A stretch of DNA of 32,000 bases from Pseudodesulfovibrio mercurii (GTDB taxonomy: Bacteria > Desulfobacterota > Desulfovibrionia > Desulfovibrionales > Desulfovibrionaceae): NCBI RefSeq assembly GCF_000189295.2, contig NC_016803.1:1890001-1922000 (forward strand). The letters are read 5' to 3'. How positions within the stretch are numbered: position 1 is the stretch's first letter; each line of letters starts with the position of its first letter. The notes under the pieces were generated by a model. The model saw only the letters and a list, made by a program, of their open reading frames with translations. It was not told the origin of the DNA and ran no database searches. This document shows positions 318 to 18,622 of this stretch, piece after piece. Position numbers and translations under genes: made by a program.

Positions 318-361
318 CCGCCAGCTGCCGATACGACGCCATCCGCTGCGTTGCTGCAAAA

Positions 362-410
362 GGCCCGGACCCTCGCGTATGAAGATACGCTTCGGCCCCG
401 GGCCTTTTTT
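362..410 (+). terminator. Family A hairpin plus T-tract (copy A1). Probable intrinsic terminator of the Sec-HesB gene.
   Basis: GGCCCGG (362-368) pairs with CCGGGCC (398-404). There is an inner stem GCGTAT/ATACGC, followed by T6 at 405-410. It lies 45 nt after the stop codon. Confidence 0.6.
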
Positions 411-473
411 GCGCCTTGCGGCTGACGCCGTCTCGACAGCTGGCTCTCGCACGTTGAGGCGGTAAGAAAAAAT

Positions 474-523
474 GCCCGGACTGTTGCGTATGTTTTGATA
501 CGCTTCGGTCCCGGGCTTTTTTT
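474..523 (+). repeat. Family A hairpin plus T-tract (copy A2).
   Basis: GCCCGG...CCGGGC with inner stem GCGTAT/ATACGC and T7 at 517-523. It is followed by the shared tail GCGCCTTGCGGC. Confidence 0.6.
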
Positions 524-589
524 GCGCCTTGCGGCTCACCACTTCTCGCCAGCTAGCCCATCTCCCGCCAAGGGAATTGGGCGGGACGC

Positions 590-638
590 GCCCGGACCCT
601 CGCATATGTTTTGGTATGCTTCGCCCCCGGGCCCTTTT
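590..638 (+). repeat. Family A hairpin (copy A3) with a weaker T-tract.
   Basis: GCCCGG...CCGGGC. The inner stem is changed to GCATA/TATGC, a compensated G:C to A:T change relative to A1. It has the shared tail GCGCCTTGCGGCTGACGCCGTCTC. Confidence 0.55.
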
Positions 639-894
639 GCGCCTTGCGGCTGACGCCGTCTCACGAGTTGGGCCATTTCCATTATATAAAATCGGGCGAG
701 GCGGGGTGCGGGCGGTCGTTCGCCTGGTTGCGGCTTGGGGCGAGCGGATTTCCGGGGATGAAATTTCAGATTTTTTCAGTCGGGATTACGGCGGGTTGGG
801 GCGGCCGGATCGGGTTGTGCATCGTTTTTCTCTTTACATCGGATAGATGATCCTTATTGTCTTGGGGAACGAACCCCATCCAGGAGAGAATCAT

Positions 895-1215
895 ATGATC
901 ACAGTTTCCGAATCGGCCCAGAATGAACTGACCAAATATTTCGAGGACAAGGACGTGCAGCCCATCCGGGTGCACCTGGCCGACGGCGGTTGCGCCGGTC
1001 CGCGCCTGTCCCTGGCCCTGGACGAGGTGCGCGAAGGCGACAAGTCCGTGGAGCAGGGAGCCTTCACCTTCCTGATCAACGAGGAACTGGCCCAGGCCTC
1101 GGGCGCGGTCTCCATCGACATGACCCCCTACGGCTTCCAGGTCTCTTCCGAGAACCAGATCGGCGGCGGGGGTTGCGGATGCTCCTCCTGCGGCACCGGC
1201 TCCTGCGGCTGCTAG
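895..1215 (+). CDS. HesB/IscA-like protein. This is the cysteine paralog of the upstream selenoprotein, with a Gly/Cys-rich C-terminal tail.
   Basis: ATG at 895 is preceded by AGGAGAG at 882-888. The product is 106 aa: MITVSESAQNELTKYFEDKDVQPIRVHLADGGCAGPRLSLALDE...GGGGCGCSSCGTGSCGC. Cys33 is encoded by TGC at 991-993. Confidence 0.85.
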   Translation: MITVSESAQNELTKYFEDKDVQPIRVHLADGGCAGPRLSLALDEVREGDKSVEQGAFTFLINEELAQASGAVSIDMTPYGFQVSSENQIGGGGCGCSSCGTGSCGC

Positions 1216-1253
1216 GCCGCGATAAGCGGCGATCCGCTGCGTTGCTTCAAAAA

Positions 1254-1301
1254 GCCCGGACCCTCGCGTATTAAGATACGCTTCGGTCCCGGGCTTTTTT
1301 T
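1254..1301 (+). terminator. Family A hairpin plus T-tract (copy A4). Probable terminator of the Cys-HesB gene.
   Basis: It has the same architecture as A1: GCCCGG...CCGGGC followed by T7 at 1295-1301. The upstream flank ATCCGCTGCGTTGCT is shared with A1. Confidence 0.6.
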
Positions 1302-1510
1302 GCGCCTTGCGGCTGACGCCGTCTCGCCAGCCAGCCCATCTCCCGCCAAGGGGATTGGGCGGATCGCGTCGGGGACGCCCGCAGTCGCGGGCTGTCGACG
1401 TCATCGGATCGGGAAAGGCAAAAAGCCGCCAGGAATCTTTCCATATAAAAAGCGAAACACCATATCGCGTTTCGCTTTTCAAACGGAAAACCACACCCCA
1501 CCATCCCCCA

Positions 1511-1554
1511 TGGAGCGCCTTCGGGTGCCCCCGGCACCCGAACAGCGGCTCTCG
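1511..1554 (-). repeat. Family C hairpin module (copy C1).
   Basis: The reverse complement reads GAGAGCCGCTGTTCGGGTGCCGGGGGCACCCGAAGGCGCTCCA. This matches 18326-18366 and 31805-31845. Confidence 0.6.
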
Positions 1555-1621
1555 CGCCAGCACGCTGTTCCGCACAACGCACCCCGGCCACGGGGCCGCT
1601 CCCCCGCGCCCCTCGCCATCA

Positions 1622-1740
1622 GGCTTGGGAGAGTGGGTCAGCTGTGCATTTTCTTCCGGCCGCGACAACCGCAGCGTAGCCGTCTACGTGAGGATTGGCG
1701 CGGCCGGAAAAAATGTGCAGATGGCCCGCTCTCGCAAGCC
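1622..1740 (+). repeat. Family B long hairpin element (copy B1).
   Basis: It has a 31-position outer stem (1622-1652 with 1710-1740) and a perfect 11-bp second stem (1654-1664 with 1699-1709). The conserved core is CC-GCAG-[5-bp hairpin]-UGA-GG-A. Confidence 0.7.
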
Positions 1741-1760: not shown

Positions 1761-1794
1761 AAAGAAAAAGGGCGGTGCTCGCTTGGCACCGCCC
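1761..1794 (-). terminator. Intrinsic terminator for the PaaK-like gene.
   Basis: A 9-bp stem, GGGCGGTGC (1770-1778) with GCACCGCCC (1786-1794). The A-rich run at 1761-1769 reads as a U-tract on the minus strand. Confidence 0.55.
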
Positions 1795-1834: not shown

Positions 1835-3073
1835 TTAATCGAAAGTCCTTTCATCGACGAGACGAGGGGCGTTCTCAGGCAGGGTGCCGGGGACGCAGGT
1901 CTCGACGACTGGTCGCAGTTTCATCGTGGCCTGGAAGTCGGCCTCGAAGCTTTCCGTATCGAAAGGCTGCGCCGTTTCCGCCACAACCACGAGTACGTCC
2001 CTGCCACTAACATGTTTCACCCGTATTTGCCAGCCTGAAATGGCCGGGTATCGTGAAAAGACGGTCGCGGCCTGGCCCGGATAGATGAACTGGCCCTTGA
2101 CCTTGGTTGTGTCGTCGGCCCGCCCTTTCCATCCGGTAAGCTTTCTGGCCGTGCGGCCGCAGGCGCAATGGCTCAGGTCCATGGACGACAGGTCGCCCGT
2201 GGCCAGGCGGACCAGCGGATAGTCGGTGAAGAACGGGGTGACCACCACCTCGCCCACCTCGCCGTCGGGCACGGGCAGCCCGGTGGCCGGGTCGCAGATC
2301 TCCACGTGCCGGTAGTTGGACAGGTGCATGCCGCCCAGTTCGCGGCACTCGTAGGCGATGCAGCCCACGTCCGCCGTGCCGTACCCCTGGCGCACGGTGA
2401 TGCCGAACATCTCCTGCACCTCCCGGCGCAGGCTCTCGGGCAGGGGCTCGGCCGCCACGTAGGCCTTTTCCAAATGGAAATCCGCCAGCGGGTCGAGCCC
2501 CAAGGCCACGGCCTTCTCGCCGATGACCTTCAGGTAGCTGGCCATGCCGATGAAGGCGTTGACCGGCAGCTCGGTCAGGAACTCGATCTGCTTCTCGGTG
2601 TTGCCCGGACCGGCCGGGATGACCGCGCAGCCGATGTCCCGGAGCGGCTCCTCCAGCATGAGCCCGGCCGGGGTCATGTGGTAGGAAAAGGTCATCTGCG
2701 CCAGGTCGCCGGGCCGGAACCCGGCCGCGAAGAACCCCTCGGACCAGGCCCAGTAGTCCGGCTCGCGCCCCTCGGGATCATAGATCGGGCCGGGCGACTG
2801 GTAGATGCGCCGCAGTTCGCCGGGCCTGCCGTTCAGGAACCAGCCGATGCCGTGCTCCCGCTGCCACTCAATGAGGTCCTTCTTGCGCAGGGGCGGAATC
2901 TTGGCGTAGTCGTCCCAGTCCTTGAAATCGCGCGCGCACGCTCCCAACGCCCCCAGCCGCTCCCGGAACTCGCCAGACCCGGCCTCGGCCGCCGCGAGCA
3001 CGTCCTTCACGCCCTTCCACTTGCGCTTCATCCGCTTCTCGCGCGGCTCCGTCTCATACTCGGTGTAGTACAT
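1835..3073 (-). CDS. Phenylacetate-CoA ligase family (PaaK-like) adenylate-forming enzyme.
   Basis: 412 aa, with typical PaaK-like motifs (YQSPGPIYDP, GYGTADVG, KVKGQFIYPGQ). GGGAGG lies 8 nt upstream of the ATG. Confidence 0.8.
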   Translation of the reverse strand: MYYTEYETEPREKRMKRKWKGVKDVLAAAEAGSGEFRERLGALGACARDFKDWDDYAKIPPLRKKDLIEWQREHGIGWFLNGRPGELRRIYQSPGPIYDPEGREPDYWAWSEGFFAAGFRPGDLAQMTFSYHMTPAGLMLEEPLRDIGCAVIPAGPGNTEKQIEFLTELPVNAFIGMASYLKVIGEKAVALGLDPLADFHLEKAYVAAEPLPESLRREVQEMFGITVRQGYGTADVGCIAYECRELGGMHLSNYRHVEICDPATGLPVPDGEVGEVVVTPFFTDYPLVRLATGDLSSMDLSHCACGRTARKLTGWKGRADDTTKVKGQFIYPGQAATVFSRYPAISGWQIRVKHVSGRDVLVVVAETAQPFDTESFEADFQATMKLRPVVETCVPGTLPENAPRLVDERTFD

Positions 3074-3221: not shown

Positions 3222-3343
3222 GGCCTGGAAGAGTGGGTCAGCTGTGCATTTTTCGAGGGGAGATTTGACCGCAGTGTACTCTTCCGTACATGAGGATCAA
3301 ATCCCCCCTCGGAAAATGTGCAGATGGCCCGCTATCCCAAGCC
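3222..3343 (+). repeat. Family B long hairpin element (copy B2).
   Basis: The outer arms are nearly identical to B1. The second stem has a different sequence (CGAGGGGAGATTTGA with TCAAATCCCCCCTCG, 14 of 15 paired). The apical hairpin is changed to TGTAC/GTACA. The element ends 2 nt before the livF stop codon. Confidence 0.7.
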
Positions 3344-3344
3344 G

Positions 3345-4145
3345 CTACCCGAGCCAGCGCTTTCTTCTTCTGTAGTGTTTGACGTCGCGGTAGCTCTTCT
3401 TGTCCCCGGCGCTGCCCATGCCGAGGTAGAATTCCTGGACGTCCGGGTTGTCGAGCAGGTCCCTGGCCGTGCCGTCCATAACCACCCGGCCGTTCTCCAT
3501 GATGTAGGCGGTCTCGGCCACGGACAGGGCCGCGCGGGCGTTCTGCTCCACCAGCAGGATGGTCACGCCCTCCTTCTCGTTGAACCGCTTGATGATGTCG
3601 AAGATTTCCTCCACCAGAAGCGGGGCCAACCCCAGCGACGGCTCGTCGAGCAGAAGCAGCCTCGGCTTGGCCATGATCGCCCGGCCGATGGCGCACATCT
3701 GCTGCTCGCCGCCGGACATGTAGCCCGCCAACTGCCGCCGCCGCTCCTTGAGCCTCGGGAAATAGTCGTAGACCAGGGCCAGGGAGTCGCCCATCTCCGA
3801 ACCGGGCCGGGTGAACGCGCCGCAACGCAGGTTCTCCTCCACGGTCAGGTCCTCGAAGATGCGCCGCCCCTCCATGACCTGGAACACGCCCCGGCGCACG
3901 ATCTTCTCCGGCACCAGCCCCTGGATGGGCTGGCCGCGGTAGACCACCGCCCCGTCCGTGACCTCGCCGTCCTCGCACTGCAACAGGCCCGAAATGGCCT
4001 TCAGCGTCGTTGACTTGCCCGCGCCGTTCGCCCCGAGCAACGCCGTGATCCGCCCCTCGGGACAGGCCAGGGACAAGCCCTTCAGGACCAGGACCACGTC
4101 GTTGTACACCACTTCCAGGTTCTCGACTCTCAGGATATCGTTCAA
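3345..4145 (-). CDS. livF: Branched-chain-amino-acid-type ABC transporter ATP-binding protein (LivF-like).
   Basis: 266 aa, with Walker A GANGAGKST and signature SGGEQQM. TTG start, with GGAGG 4 nt upstream. Confidence 0.8.
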   Translation of the reverse strand: MNDILRVENLEVVYNDVVLVLKGLSLACPEGRITALLGANGAGKSTTLKAISGLLQCEDGEVTDGAVVYRGQPIQGLVPEKIVRRGVFQVMEGRRIFEDLTVEENLRCGAFTRPGSEMGDSLALVYDYFPRLKERRRQLAGYMSGGEQQMCAIGRAIMAKPRLLLLDEPSLGLAPLLVEEIFDIIKRFNEKEGVTILLVEQNARAALSVAETAYIMENGRVVMDGTARDLLDNPDVQEFYLGMGSAGDKKSYRDVKHYRRRKRWLG

Positions 4146-16147: not shown

Positions 16148-18169
16148 ATGTGGAAACGCGCGGTCTGCACCAAGGACTGTCCCGACACCTGCGGCCTGCT
16201 GGTCAAGGTGGAGAACGGCAGGATAACCTCGGTCAAGGGCGACCCGGACCATCCCTACACCCGGGGGTTCCTCTGCGGGAAAGGGGCGCGGTTCCCGGAG
16301 CACGTGCACGGCGCGGCCCGGCTGACCACGCCGCTCAAACGCACCGGGCCCAAGGGCAGCGGCGCCTTCGCGCCCATCTCCTGGGACGAGGCCCTGGACG
16401 AGGTGGCCGCCAACATCCGGCGGGTGGCCGACGCCTACGGGCCCGAGGCCATACTGCCCTACACCTACGCCGGGCACATGGGCATGGTCCACCGGTACGC
16501 GGGCCACGCCCTGTTCAACAAGCTCGGGGCCAGCCGCCTGGACGCGACCATCTGCGGCCCGGCGGCCACGGCGGGCTTCAAGGCCACCCTGGGCAAGGGC
16601 CCGAGCACCGAGATCCAGGAGGCGGCGCAGTCCGACCTTGTCGTCATCTGGGGCAACAACACCCTGGTGACCAACGTCCACGCCTGGCCGCACTTCCTCA
16701 AGGCCCGCAAAAACGGCGCGAGGATCATCGTCATCGACCCCTACCGCAACGCCACGGCCCGCGAGGCGGACGCGCACCTCATGCTCCGGCCCGGCACGGA
16801 CGCGGCCCTGGCCCTGGCCGTCATGCACGTGCTCGTCACCGAGGACCTCGTGGACCACGAGTTCATCGCGGCGCAAACCATCGGCTTCGACCGGCTCAAG
16901 GAACGCGTCCTGGACTGGCCGCCCGCCCGGGCCGCCGAAATCTGCGACCTGGCCGAGCCGGACATCGTCGCCTTCGCCCGCGCCTACGGCCGCGCCCGCG
17001 CCCCCTACATCCGCACGGGCTGGGGACCGGCCCGGCAGCTGGCGGGCGGCATGGCCATGCGGACCATCTCCCTGCTCCCGGCCCTGGTCAACGCCTTCGG
17101 CAAACCCGGCGGCGGCATCACCCGGTCCCTGGGCGGCGCGCCCGGCAAGGCCCCGTCCCTCATCCGCGAGGACCTGCGCCCGGCGGGCACGCGCACCGTG
17201 AACATGGTCCACCTGGGCCGCGCCCTGACCGAGCTCGCCGACCCGCCGGTCATGCTCCTCTACAACTACCTGTCCAACCCGGCGGCAGTGGCCCCGCAGT
17301 CGGCCCAGGTCATGGCCGGGCTGGCCCGCGAGGACCTGTTCACCGTGGTCCACGAGCTGTACATGACCGACACCGCCCGGTTCGCGGACATCATCCTGCC
17401 CGGCGCGAGCTTCCTCGAGGTGGGCGACATCTACCGCTCCTACGGCCACAACCACGTCCAGATCGCCCGGCCCGTCATCGACCCGGTGGGCGACAGCCGG
17501 TCCACCCTGGACATCTTCCAGGACCTAGCCCGCCGCCTCGGCTTCACCGAGGAGGTCTTCTCCCTGAGCGAAGCCCAGTGCATCGAGCGCATCCTGGACG
17601 AGGCCGACTCGCCCTATCTCGACGGCGTGGACCTCGACGCCCTGCGCCGGGGCGAGCCCGTGCGCCTGAACATCCCGGCCAACCCCTTTGCCGGCGGCTT
17701 CGACACCCCGTCCGGCAAGGTCGAGTGCTTCTCCCAATCCATGGCCGACCAGGGGCTCGATCCCCTGCCCGACGGCACGCCCGTGCGCGACCCCGAGGGC
17801 GGCGAGGAATACCCCCTCGAATACATCACCCCGCCCCACCCCATGCTGCTCAACTCCGCCTTTAACGAGATCGAGACCCTGCGCGAACGCATCGGCGGCC
17901 CCAAGGTGCTCATCCACCCCGCAACCGCCGCCGCGCGGGGCATCACCCAGGGCATGACCGTGCGCGTGTTCAACGCCCGAGGCCGGAACACCGCCCGGGC
18001 CGAGATCACCGAGGACACCCGGCCCGAGCTGCTTGTGGCCGAAGGGCTGCACCGGGTGGACGGCACCCCCGGCCAGGGCTCCAACCAGCTGACCAGCCAA
18101 CGCCTGACCGATATGGGCAACACCTGCGCCTTCCACTGCAATAAGGTCCAAGTGGAGCCTGTCGGCTAG
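16148..18169 (+). CDS. Molybdopterin (bis-MGD) oxidoreductase family protein. It has no Tat signal, so it is probably cytoplasmic.
   Basis: 673 aa. The N-terminal Cys cluster is C-x3-C-x3-C (CTKDCPDTCG), followed by FLCGKG. The layout is MopB-like, with a C-terminal beta-barrel region. Confidence 0.8.
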   Translation: MWKRAVCTKDCPDTCGLLVKVENGRITSVKGDPDHPYTRGFLCGKGARFPEHVHGAARLTTPLKRTGPKGSGAFAPISWDEALDEVAANIRRVADAYGPEAILPYTYAGHMGMVHRYAGHALFNKLGASRLDATICGPAATAGFKATLGKGPSTEIQEAAQSDLVVIWGNNTLVTNVHAWPHFLKARKNGARIIVIDPYRNATAREADAHLMLRPGTDAALALAVMHVLVTEDLVDHEFIAAQTIGFDRLKERVLDWPPARAAEICDLAEPDIVAFARAYGRARAPYIRTGWGPARQLAGGMAMRTISLLPALVNAFGKPGGGITRSLGGAPGKAPSLIREDLRPAGTRTVNMVHLGRALTELADPPVMLLYNYLSNPAAVAPQSAQVMAGLAREDLFTVVHELYMTDTARFADIILPGASFLEVGDIYRSYGHNHVQIARPVIDPVGDSRSTLDIFQDLARRLGFTEEVFSLSEAQCIERILDEADSPYLDGVDLDALRRGEPVRLNIPANPFAGGFDTPSGKVECFSQSMADQGLDPLPDGTPVRDPEGGEEYPLEYITPPHPMLLNSAFNEIETLRERIGGPKVLIHPATAAARGITQGMTVRVFNARGRNTARAEITEDTRPELLVAEGLHRVDGTPGQGSNQLTSQRLTDMGNTCAFHCNKVQVEPVG

Positions 18170-18175
18170 GGGGGC

Positions 18176-18296
18176 GGCTTCCGAGAGCGGCGCATCTGCA
18201 CATTTTTTCCAGGGGGCTTTCATCCTCACGTAGACGGCTACGCTGCGGTGAAAGCCCCCTGGAAGAAAATGCAAAGCTGCACCACTCTCGAAAGCC
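18176..18296 (-). repeat. Family B long hairpin element (copy B3).
   Basis: The reverse complement aligns with B1 and B2. The second stem is TTCCAGGGGGCTTTCA with TGAAAGCCCCCTGGAA, a perfect 16 bp of unrelated sequence. The core CCGCAGCGTAGCCGTCTACGTGAGGA is identical to B1. The element starts 7 nt after the oxidoreductase stop. Confidence 0.7.
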
Positions 18297-18325
18297 TATC
18301 CCGAGGACGCTTTGGCGGCTGAAGA

Positions 18326-18366
18326 GAGAGCCGCTGTCGGGTGGCTGCGCCACCCGAATCGCTCCA
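18326..18366 (+). repeat. Family C hairpin module (copy C2).
   Basis: GAGAGCCGCTGTCGGGTGGCTGCGCCACCCGAATCGCTCCA. The stem is GGGTGGC/GCCACCC, compared with GGGTGCC/GGCACCC in C1 and GAGTGCC/GGCACCC (one mismatch) in C3. Confidence 0.6.
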
Positions 18367-18445
18367 GGACGAGGAAAGCTGTGGGCCTCGCGAACTTCCC
18401 CGCGAAGCGACACAAAAAGTTTAGGAGGGGAGAGGGGATGGGGGT

Positions 18446-18505
18446 CCGGGGGAAGGGGAGAGGGGGACCCTTTTCTCAAAGGGTCCCCCTCTCCCCTTCC
18501 CCCGG
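18446..18505. repeat. Family D hairpin (copy D2): a perfect 27-bp stem with a TTCTCA loop.
   Basis: CCGGGGGAAGGGGAGAGGGGGACCCTT-TTCTCA-AAGGGTCCCCCTCTCCCCTTCCCCCGG, read directly from the sequence. Confidence 0.65.
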
Positions 18506-18622
18506 TCGCCGGAGGCGCCCCTTCGGCCGGTACTCCGGGTATTGGGGGAAGCGTTGCTTTTCCCGGTGGGGCGGGCTAATAGGCTGCATTGCCGGGCCTG
18601 TGCGCCGGGCATCGGTGACCGC

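Follow-up and report, generated by a model that had tools for sequence, protein, structure and literature searches.

We have examined a family of long hairpins, hairpin B, in a 32,000-nucleotide (nt) stretch of the Pseudodesulfovibrio mercurii genome (NC_016803.1, forward-strand positions 1,890,001 to 1,922,000; hereafter the window), in which three copies lie behind protein-coding genes. Copy B1 is located on the plus strand at 1622..1740, downstream of an acyl/phenylacetate-CoA ligase gene (1835..3073, minus strand), a housekeeping gene which is syntenic in relatives and whose protein is 88-91% identical to its nearest database relatives. B1 lies 94 nt past the ligase stop codon, beyond the intrinsic terminator of the gene (1770..1794, minus strand), which is situated between stop codon and hairpin. 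Copy B2 (3222..3343, plus strand) is upstream of the ligase gene, in the intercistronic gap preceding it, and abuts an ABC-transporter ATPase gene (3345..4145, minus strand), the distance between the hairpin 3' end and the TAG stop codon being 1 nt. Copy B3 (18176..18296, minus strand) similarly abuts a molybdopterin oxidoreductase gene (16148..18169, plus strand), its 3' end lying 6 nt from the TAG stop codon. An initial annotation, made from the sequence alone, had placed all three copies at exactly these positions, and a search of the window for the arm or core motif with ≤3 mismatches returned only B1, B2 and B3, against a chance expectation of ∼0.01.

Fold, strand polarity and placement of hairpin B

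Each copy folds as one long hairpin, with folding energies of -86.0, -76.2 and -86.5 kcal/mol and z-scores of -10.8, -9.5 and -12.6 for B1, B2 and B3, respectively, and none of 200 shuffled sequences folded as well. The complementary strands fold 7-16 kcal/mol worse. For B1, the given strand is also preferred with DNA parameters (-53.4 versus -39.3 kcal/mol) and by a covariance model, described below, which scores 124.2 bits on the plus strand and 69.9 on the minus strand. The base of the hairpin reads GGCTTyCGAGAG...CTATCGrAAGCC, and the core reported initially, CC-GCAG-hairpin-UGA-GG-A, is correct in all three copies, as is the apical covariation between CGTAG/CTACG and TGTAC/GTACA. Other parts of the initial description required revision. 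The shared outer stem of 31 positions holds for B1, whereas B2 and B3 differ at several, partly compensated, positions. Similarly, the G.A mismatch described as conserved is universal at the internal pair G20.A108 but not at a second pair, G10.A118, which is mismatched in B2 and in most copies elsewhere but is G-C in B1 and B3. The second stem is of the CGGCCGCGACAA/TTGGCGCGGCCG subtype in B1 and of the CCAGGGGGCTTTCA/TGAAAGCCCCCTGG subtype in B3, and in B2 contains one A.C mismatch.

Further copies were sought by scanning one genome per species with the invariant 3'-arm motif. The scan returned 80 loci, ∼60 of which belong to 'Desulfovibrio' caledoniensis (complete 4.15-Mb chromosome), Pseudodesulfovibrio karagichevae and two Desulfovibrionaceae/Pseudodesulfovibrio metagenome-assembled genomes (MAGs), while the remaining ∼19, in unrelated taxa, approximate the number expected by chance (∼17) and contain no hairpin. 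A covariance model of the kind proposed in the initial annotation, built from 53 copies, detects ∼75 copies in ∼0.5 Mb of DNA around the loci from related genomes. Copies are spread across 0.37-4.07 Mb of CP195092.1 and do not form arrays. The structure was tested on the same 53 copies, 51 of them distinct, using column shuffles and partners slid by 1-3 columns as controls. Paired cells amount to 94.8%, compared with 82.8% in column shuffles, and drop to 31-47% when partners are slid. The covariation asserted initially was borne out, with a score of 0.303 versus 0.095 in shuffles and none of 500 shuffles as good. Three irregularities recur in every copy, namely the G.A mismatch, a bulged A and the asymmetric internal loop.

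Covariation is most extensive in the second stem, in which 10 of 12 pairs change on both sides and up to 4-5 pair types are observed per position. The stem is not freely variable, being present as a few discrete subtypes that include, in addition to that of B1, GAGGGTCCGCCTGA/TCAGGCGGGCCCTC, CCrGGGGGCTTTCA/TGAAAGCCCCCyGG and GGGGGCAAGrCAA/TTGkCTTGCCCCC. The second stems of the window copies had been described as completely different yet complementary; the stems quoted are correct, but they do not represent three independent compensations, as subtypes are inherited as blocks. Much of the difference among the three window copies is the result of block inheritance and, probably, of copy-to-copy exchange or replacement via the conserved arms, because orthologous copies often differ in subtype while paralogues in the same genome are near-identical. 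Independent compensation within subtypes is nevertheless genuine. Approximately 10-12 compensated pair changes occur inside subtypes, several with a surviving G.U intermediate, and the series C-G to U.G to U-A is seen, partly by inspection, at alignment columns 42/88, 47/83 and 57/74. B2 and its orthologue in the closest relative (L082) show one clean G-C/A-T exchange.

Pairing is strongly strand-specific. In the 51 distinct copies, G.U pairs occupy 350 cells and A.C pairs 19 in the given orientation, six pairs are G.U in the majority of copies while none is A.C in the majority, and all 51 copies are more stable on the given strand (mean -83.8 versus -64.6 kcal/mol). The covariance model likewise scores the given strand 50-60 bits above its complement at every copy. 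Thus, the G.U excess on this strand and its convergent orientation relative to the neighbouring gene, both pointed out in the initial annotation, are correct, and the polarity at which they hinted is upheld by the full set of copies: pairing is selected on the strand that was named. The C-to-T biases known to accompany transcription and replication affect the sense or leading strand and would yield G.U pairs on the sense strand. Because mutational bias would therefore place the G.U pairs on the opposite strand from that observed, the polarity is most probably the product of selection. Mechanical correction of the palindrome is disfavoured because the fixed irregularities are kept everywhere. 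A replication-strand (lagging-template) bias was rejected, the hairpin strand coinciding with the G-rich strand at 12 of 22 loci on the complete chromosome.

Neither a promoter-like signal nor an intrinsic terminator was detected on the folded strand, on which the hairpin is followed by GCC(C)n and, beyond it, by sequence antisense to the coding region. As the hairpin is not followed immediately by a U-tract, its identity as an intrinsic (Rho-independent) terminator is ruled out; separate terminators exist.

The folded strand is antisense to the adjoining gene, with the 3' end of the hairpin facing the 3' end of the gene. Counting only open reading frames (ORFs) of ≥80 aa with a GC content at third codon positions (GC3) of ≥0.75, a convergent gene end is found within -15 to +120 nt of the hairpin 3' end for 56 of 70 copies, compared with 3 of 58 in the mirror-orientation control. 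The gene end is ≤11 nt from the hairpin in 31 of these 56 cases, and in more distant cases the gene's own terminator intervenes, as at B1. The placement rule was replicated in copies not chosen by motif pattern and in the related family A, as well as in Bacteroidales, other metagenomic taxa and Geobacter operons (see below). The neighbours are functionally unrelated housekeeping genes, for example those encoding TyrRS, GAPDH, GlnA, ABC transporters and kinases, and the hairpin flanks have no common motif besides stop codons. TAG is the commonest stop codon in these genomes (57% of GC3-validated ORFs of ≥150 aa in loci L002-L085 and the window), which is unusual relative to many bacteria. A TAG-specific insertion target was rejected, since TAG is not used next to hairpins above this background (p = 0.14).

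Modules and history of the sites

The initial annotation had also proposed that hairpin B may be part of a larger composite element, and the presence of a Family C module beside B1 and B3 was confirmed, B2 being a solitary copy that lacks the module. The module of B1 (1512..1553, plus strand) has the form GGAGCG-CTTCGGGTG-loop-CACCCGAA-CAGCGGCTCTC and is joined to the hairpin by an unusually long linker (1554-1621) that carries an extra small hairpin. At B3 the module is GGAGCGATTCGGGTG-GCGCAGC-CACCCGACAGCGGCTCTC (18326..18365, minus strand) and the linker occupies 18297-18325. The Family C hairpin itself covaries among copies (GGGCGG/CCGCCC, GGTTGG/CCAACC). In related genomes C lies ahead of B in at least 52 of 65 copies, usually starting 55-57 nt upstream.

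Along the hairpin strand the complete mosaic has the order M1, M2, Family C, B. M1 consists of a long GA-rich hairpin, a C-rich tract and AAACTTTTT..GCCGCTTCGCGGGG; M2 is a terminator-like hairpin that is itself a repeat family; and Family C has the form GGAGCGATTCGGGTG-loop-CACCCGACAGCGGCTC. In the window, M1 is found at 18399..18518 on the minus strand, where 18441-18473 pairs with 18478-18510 to give the 33-bp GA-rich hairpin and where a C-rich tract and AAACTTTTTGTGTCGCTTCGCGGGG complete the module; it is also present upstream of most B copies in related genomes (loci L002-L073). Read in the sense of the gene, the order is stop codon, B, C, terminator, and the C+B unit therefore fills the 3' untranslated region (UTR). 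Two observations were made on the accompanying modules. M1 is a multi-copy sequence made up of GCCTCCGGCG, a near-perfect 33-bp GA-rich hairpin, a C-rich tract (CCCCCATCCCC...) and AAACTTTTTGTnGCCGCTTCGCGGGG, the opposite strand of which is rich in G-runs and could form a G-quadruplex. The terminator-like hairpins between M1 and C (L005, L009, L014, L022, L035, L046, L060 and others) are flanked by an A-run and a T-run and are similar to one another, with the consensus GGCCTCCGACTCA..TGAGTCGGAGGCC. Hence the terminator, whose better T-run is on the gene-sense strand, is itself repeated as a module.

Hairpin B is in turn a site at which other sequences are found. Small palindromic modules of about 52, 58 and 85 nt, the last folding into three hairpins (z = -5.7), are nested within B hairpins at the core (L020, L031, L057, L066, L073:45-218, L050), after the 5' arm (L028, L034, L041, L056) or inside the 5' arm (L019, L054, L068). 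These genomes thus seem to hold a set of small structured repeats which insert into one another.

Comparison of sites between species indicates how the elements are inherited. D. caledoniensis and P. karagichevae have ∼20 orthologous sites in common, filled in both species and with flanks ∼90% identical. In roughly half of the orthologous pairs compared, the two copies belong to different subtypes and are 75-87% identical, whereas paralogues in the same genome are 95-99% identical. The copy L019 is chimeric: its two half-stems come from different subtypes and are not complementary. The B2 site, just past the ABC-ATPase stop codon, is filled in all seven genomes compared (that of the window and six relatives), with differing subtypes. 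The B1 site is filled in P. portus and reduced to a remnant of 40 nt in L083/L084; L082, the closest relative, lacks B1 and has another gene there, the site being rearranged rather than empty. B3 has an apparent orthologue in P. karagichevae (L013), with a shared 3' flank and an 87%-identical segment. The native terminator is the same in L031 and L036, yet the two species have the C+B unit on different sides of it, one side also carrying a remnant. In L083/L084 (5331-5370) the whole interior of B was lost by deletion between the GTGCAG direct repeats of both arms, which shows one route by which B elements decay. Target-site duplications, suggested in the initial annotation as a sign of mobility, were detected neither at the junctions of ∼65 copies nor in the L031/L036 comparison. 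The elements are thus old and vertically inherited, yet turning over. Many P. karagichevae draft contigs (for example L013, L025, L033, L045, L068 and L072) end inside or beside mosaic repeats, which suggests that these repeats break short-read assemblies.

Related hairpins in other families and phyla

The initial annotation could assign the hairpin to no known family. Hairpin B belongs to a superfamily first catalogued in 2009 in Geobacter metallireducens (PMC2700814) and is one lineage of this widespread group of ∼110-125-nt interspersed hairpins, which occurs at least in Desulfovibrionales, Geobacter and Bacteroidales.

A second lineage, family A, is present in the window itself. An intact family-A hairpin at 323..441 (minus strand) matches the model over its full length with 58.9 bits and folds at -75.2 kcal/mol (z -9.4), with the stop codon of a convergent ORF 5 nt away. 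It is in tandem with two decayed units on the same strand (450..671, about 450-556 and 563-671). A further full-length match, 1215..1332 (minus strand), overlaps with its 3' end, by 1 nt, the TAG stop codon of an Fe-S-cluster gene (847-1215, plus strand). Family A has the same ∼119-nt architecture as B and the same placement rule, the stop codon sometimes lying within the terminal stem. The two families have in common CGAGA/TATCG, including the same G.A mismatch, GTCAGC paired with GCAG..GATGG, and the core CCG-mAG-CGTAn...nTACG-yGA-GG, which in intact family A reads CCG-AAG-CGTAT...ATACG-CGA-GG. Family A is the sister family of B. Within 15-1332 of the window, the Fe-S-cluster-biosynthesis-family gene was observed to be tandemly duplicated along with its family-A hairpin.

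A pattern containing only the motifs common to A and B was used to scan metagenomes and returned 38 loci of 41-68% GC, nearly all of them long hairpins with the core at the apex. Several contigs carry more than one copy, and the neighbours are again housekeeping genes. One locus (L089) derives from a Bacteroidales bacterium, its GlmS being 91-96% identical to proteins of Bacteroidales MAGs, and here the hairpin is antisense and ∼5 nt behind the glmS stop codon. In the cross-taxon alignment, which had been fitted to the model, both partners vary at 46 of 51 pairs, the paired fraction of cells is 88.7% versus 60% in shuffles, and the covariation score is 0.534 versus 0.141 in shuffles (0 of 500 as good) and 0.08-0.10 in slid controls. 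Strand polarity is retained in members from other taxa, with G.U pairs in 73 cells and A.C in 23. Superfamily invariants are restricted to a few base positions and a 20-nt core: the sub-terminal and apical motifs are invariant, while the outermost 6-7 bp vary freely and, as in the middle stem, merely pair. Even at the apex, the innermost pair of the CGUA/UACG stem covaries across taxa (12 C-G, 9 U-A and 6 G-C).

A metagenomic copy near the start of a 1.1-kb contig (L122) is a perfect palindrome, the 3' arm being the exact reverse complement of the 5' arm, and has lost every G.U pair and mismatch; it either arose by template switching or is a snap-back artefact of assembly or amplification. In members such as L124, L111 and L106, the core (GTACGTGAGGACCGG) has a 3' half that matches the 23S rRNA sarcin-ricin loop (GUACGAGAGGACCGG) at 14 of 15 positions, which we take to be probably a coincidence; it could alternatively fold as a C-GNRA-G mini-hairpin. 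GUACGUGAGGACCGG likewise resembles the 23S sarcin-ricin loop, and GCAGAUGAC resembles 4.5S RNA, in both cases presumably by coincidence. A kink-turn reading of the GCAG/UGA loop was rejected, as the register required for tandem G.A pairs conflicts with the CGUA/UACG stem. No taxon was assigned to the high-GC member L103, for which the ORF chosen has no homologues and is probably spurious.

The Geobacter members are the 24 'predicted short RNA elements' Gmet_R1001-R1024 of G. metallireducens (Aklujkar et al. 2009, BMC Microbiol 9:109, Fig. S1, Table S4; PMC2700814), described as ∼112-nt, multi-copy and intergenic, and for which no structure, polarity, placement rule or function was given. When reverse-complemented, the printed sequences fold as single ∼110-nt hairpins, and this equivalent strand is the more stable in 10 of 10 copies. 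Gmet_R1003, R1010, R1013, R1015 and R1021 contain all three conserved blocks, colinear with B and in the order GGTCAGA; AACCGCAG-GCGTAGC..GCTACGTC-GAGGATTG; AGATGGCC. The central palindrome, GRCGTAGC...GCTACGCC, resembles the apex of B, CGTAG-loop-CTACG, and the secondary structure, the strand polarity and the position next to housekeeping genes, antisense to the operon, are those of B. Most Geobacter copies are listed between operon cistrons (nuo, nif, etf, dap, cys; Table S4, PMC2700814); the sense copy is therefore co-transcribed and the folded strand is again antisense. The Geobacter elements differ from B in constituting another sequence family, in having no Family C partner and in the diverged internal loop of 19 of the 24 copies. 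Relative to PMC2700814, the Pseudodesulfovibrio B lineage, family A and the Bacteroidales link are new.

Other searches were negative. At the gathering threshold, Rfam 15 gave no matches in the window and only tRNA and RNase P in 17 diverse loci; with permissive E-values, a window copy gave sub-threshold matches to miRNA precursors, that is generic hairpins, and L117 gave none. A literature search on Desulfovibrio and Pseudodesulfovibrio repeats, miniature inverted-repeat transposable elements (MITEs) and the core words found nothing relevant besides the Geobacter paper.

Possible roles of the hairpin

We tentatively favour the interpretation that hairpin B is a non-autonomous, REPIN-like element which is recognised as a folded single strand by a trans-acting protein. 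In REPINs the inverted ends are conserved, the spacer is less so but still maintains the hairpin, and compensatory changes are common (Bertels and Rainey 2011, PMC3116915). Hairpin B corresponds to this description in being a hairpin on the 100-nt scale with two conserved inverted ends and a spacer that remains paired through compensatory change; REPINs are, in addition, predicted to act as single-stranded DNA (ssDNA) or RNA hairpins (PMC3116915). The two are alike, too, in the number of their extragenic copies (tens to hundreds), in forming tandem clusters and in persisting vertically over long times, and it is because the evolutionary pattern matches that published for REPINs (PMC3116915) that a REPIN-like reading is proposed. 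B differs from REPINs in its strictly antisense orientation to the adjoining gene, its adjacency to stop codons and its conserved apical core.

On this proposal the element would act as a folded single strand, most likely ssDNA and otherwise a low-level antisense RNA, the active strand being that antisense to local transcription. The active form would be ssDNA rather than RNA, a preference we hold weakly, because no promoter is seen on the folded strand. The protein would read the conserved base, xGAGA..GTCAGC paired with GCAGATGR..TATCx and including the fixed G.A mismatch, as well as the apical core, comprising the CC / G-M-A : G-A / GG internal loop and the CGTA...TACG hairpin, while the outermost and middle stems would need only to pair. 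Recognition by a protein is suggested by the conserved non-Watson-Crick features, which are common to the sister families and extend across phyla. Copies would occupy the few places in which they are tolerated, from stop codon to terminator or from stop codon to next cistron, and would survive there over long times, exchange between copies via the conserved arms, or re-insertion, keeping them intact and homogeneous. The antisense orientation is most simply accounted for by selection against the fully paired version in mRNAs, which would remove copies whose fully paired strand is transcribed into the message and so leave the strict orientation observed.

Several results weigh against this proposal. 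No RAYT or Y1 protein was found by phmmer and tblastn with E. coli RayT or by a scan for HUH/Y motifs in ∼460 kb around ∼65 copies, a part of each genome, and no other recurrent enzyme was detected in the same ∼460 kb or around diverse metagenomic members, again covering part of each genome. With folding energies of 0 and -3.7 kcal/mol, the B arms are no more stable than shuffled sequences and are thus not mini-palindromes; arms of the A-like type are weakly self-pairing. REP and REPIN sequences are normally lineage-specific, whereas the present core extends across phyla, a distribution that better fits a universal host factor or an intrinsic RNA function. Membership in the REPIN/RAYT system is accordingly not established, because no RAYT was found, the arms are not REP-like palindromes and the core is kept across phyla. 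Members downstream of fliP form a group with sense orientation. Among the syntenic loci compared, we found neither a clean pair of filled and empty sites nor excision products or target-site duplications; these loci show differences in presence, a remnant and subtype replacement, and mobility is therefore putative. Finally, the sense copy is certainly co-transcribed within operons, and the element may therefore have an RNA-level role.

Such a host function in RNA at gene 3' ends is the main rival, a possible explanation which we nevertheless consider somewhat doubtful. The hairpin would be a cis-acting element of 3' UTRs and intercistronic regions, involved in mRNA 3'-end stability, operon processing by RNase III or RNase E, translation termination at the adjoining stop codon or the blocking of antisense read-through into the gene, and the active RNA would be either the copy transcribed with the gene or an antisense transcript made in cis with the folded polarity. 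It is known that REP and ERIC elements stabilise or destabilise upstream mRNA and that REPs proximal to stop codons can stall ribosomes. The position of the hairpin at the 3' ends of genes, in many cases with only 0-11 nt to the stop codon, its location between operon cistrons in Geobacter and in the window, where it must be transcribed, the occupation of the same sites across species and the deep cross-phylum conservation of sequence and structure with no transposase all agree with this explanation. It accounts poorly for pairing that is selected on the strand not present in the mRNA, for the absence of a promoter-like signal from which an antisense transcript could arise and for the lack of a U-tract after the hairpin on the folded strand, which excludes intrinsic termination. 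The genes served are, moreover, unrelated in function, and copies decay, gain insertions and swap interiors as selfish repeats do. A further alternative, which we regard as doubtful, is that the superfamily is distinct from REP/RAYT systems, MITEs and attC sites alike, being a cross-phylum, structure-specific element with its own dedicated machinery. The 'genomic replicators' might be maintained, antisense to transcription, by hairpin-recognising enzymes of a new class, either HUH-type nucleases or recombinases, or the hairpin might belong to a new and widespread type of cis-antisense RNA or ssDNA device by which gene 3' ends are marked or insulated.

Geometry brings to mind the integron attC site, the bottom strand of which is recombinogenic and antisense to the cassette ORF, and which abuts or overlaps the stop codon. 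Hairpin B, of similar size range, would then be an ssDNA recombination site read by a site-specific recombinase, an idea we consider improbable. The folded strand is likewise antisense to the upstream ORF at or overlapping the stop codon, which in family A can lie inside the terminal stem, the conserved base has mismatched or extrahelical bases and is followed by a variable paired stem, and the ligase gene is flanked by two directly oriented copies. By sequence inspection, however, there are no R'' (RYYYAAC) or R' (GTTRRRY) core sites and the base is devoid of AAC/GTT boxes; copies are dispersed over 0.37-4.07 Mb rather than arrayed, the flanked genes are syntenic housekeeping genes and not cassettes, no integrase was seen nearby, and the apical core is conserved whereas the terminal structure of attC is variable. 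The likeness is a striking geometric analogy, but one that fails every attC-specific test. Descent from an ordinary MITE, an internally deleted DDE-type insertion sequence with the arms as terminal inverted repeats and the transposase encoded elsewhere, is very improbable. ERIC/IRU and Correia (NEMIS) sequences are palindromic, MITE-like repeats of ∼100-160 bp that are transcribed together with genes and influence the fate of the mRNA, and B resembles them in its similar size, its intergenic position at gene ends and its long RNA hairpin, while ERIC and Correia elements also have orientation-dependent effects on neighbouring transcripts. A multi-copy, intergenic, imperfect palindrome of ∼120 bp, within which other small modules are nested and whose presence differs between species at L031/L036 and the B1 site, is what a MITE would be expected to look like. 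In contrast to such elements, B has neither a TA nor any other target-site duplication at the junctions inspected, its outermost pairs are the least conserved and its sub-terminal and central motifs the most, the reverse of transposase-bound inverted repeats, and its strand-specific G.U pattern would be meaningless for double-stranded ends. No transposase, integrase or insertion sequence was found among the genes neighbouring B copies and metagenomic members, and a match to an insertion-sequence-derived MITE with terminal inverted repeats and duplications, which the initial annotation had considered as a full explanation, was not found. ERIC homology was rejected, with no blastn match in 5,426 E. 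coli genomes. An IS200/IS605-derived palindromic element (PATE) was rejected since there is no fixed target motif, no lagging-strand bias (12/22) and no TnpA or TnpB, neither of which was found in the ∼460 kb around B copies. A phage or plasmid origin was likewise rejected, there being no blastn match and the hairpin being absent from two viral contigs whose pattern matches arose by chance. Finally, we find it hardly credible that complementarity arose without selection, by snap-back or template-switch copying or hairpin-templated correction, although the perfect palindrome of L122 and the inheritance of between-subtype differences as blocks are in keeping with it. More than 50 copies, and members in different phyla, retain six G.U positions, two G.A mismatches, the bulged A and the asymmetric loop, which largely refutes the snap-back origin of the variable stem that the initial annotation had entertained; G.U intermediates of compensation persist, the mismatched chimera L019 exists, and C-to-T bias would be expected to give the opposite polarity.

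Thus, hairpin B is real and strongly supported, and is a lineage of a superfamily that is widespread and barely described, closest to REPIN-type repeats and differing from them in several defining respects. REP, REPIN, ERIC and Correia sequences are usually lineage-specific and their biology is partly understood. The B superfamily differs: a ∼120-nt fold with fixed mismatches and a 20-nt core is kept in Desulfovibrionales, Geobacter and Bacteroidales, shows textbook covariation and is absent from Rfam. It also obeys an unusually strict rule, the folded strand being antisense to the adjoining gene and often touching its stop codon, and no transposase is apparent. Should there be a partner protein or an RNA function, this would be conserved across phyla and new. 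In practical terms, the elements will confuse the annotation of gene ends, terminator prediction and assembly, and they provide ready-made strain-typing markers for sulfate reducers.

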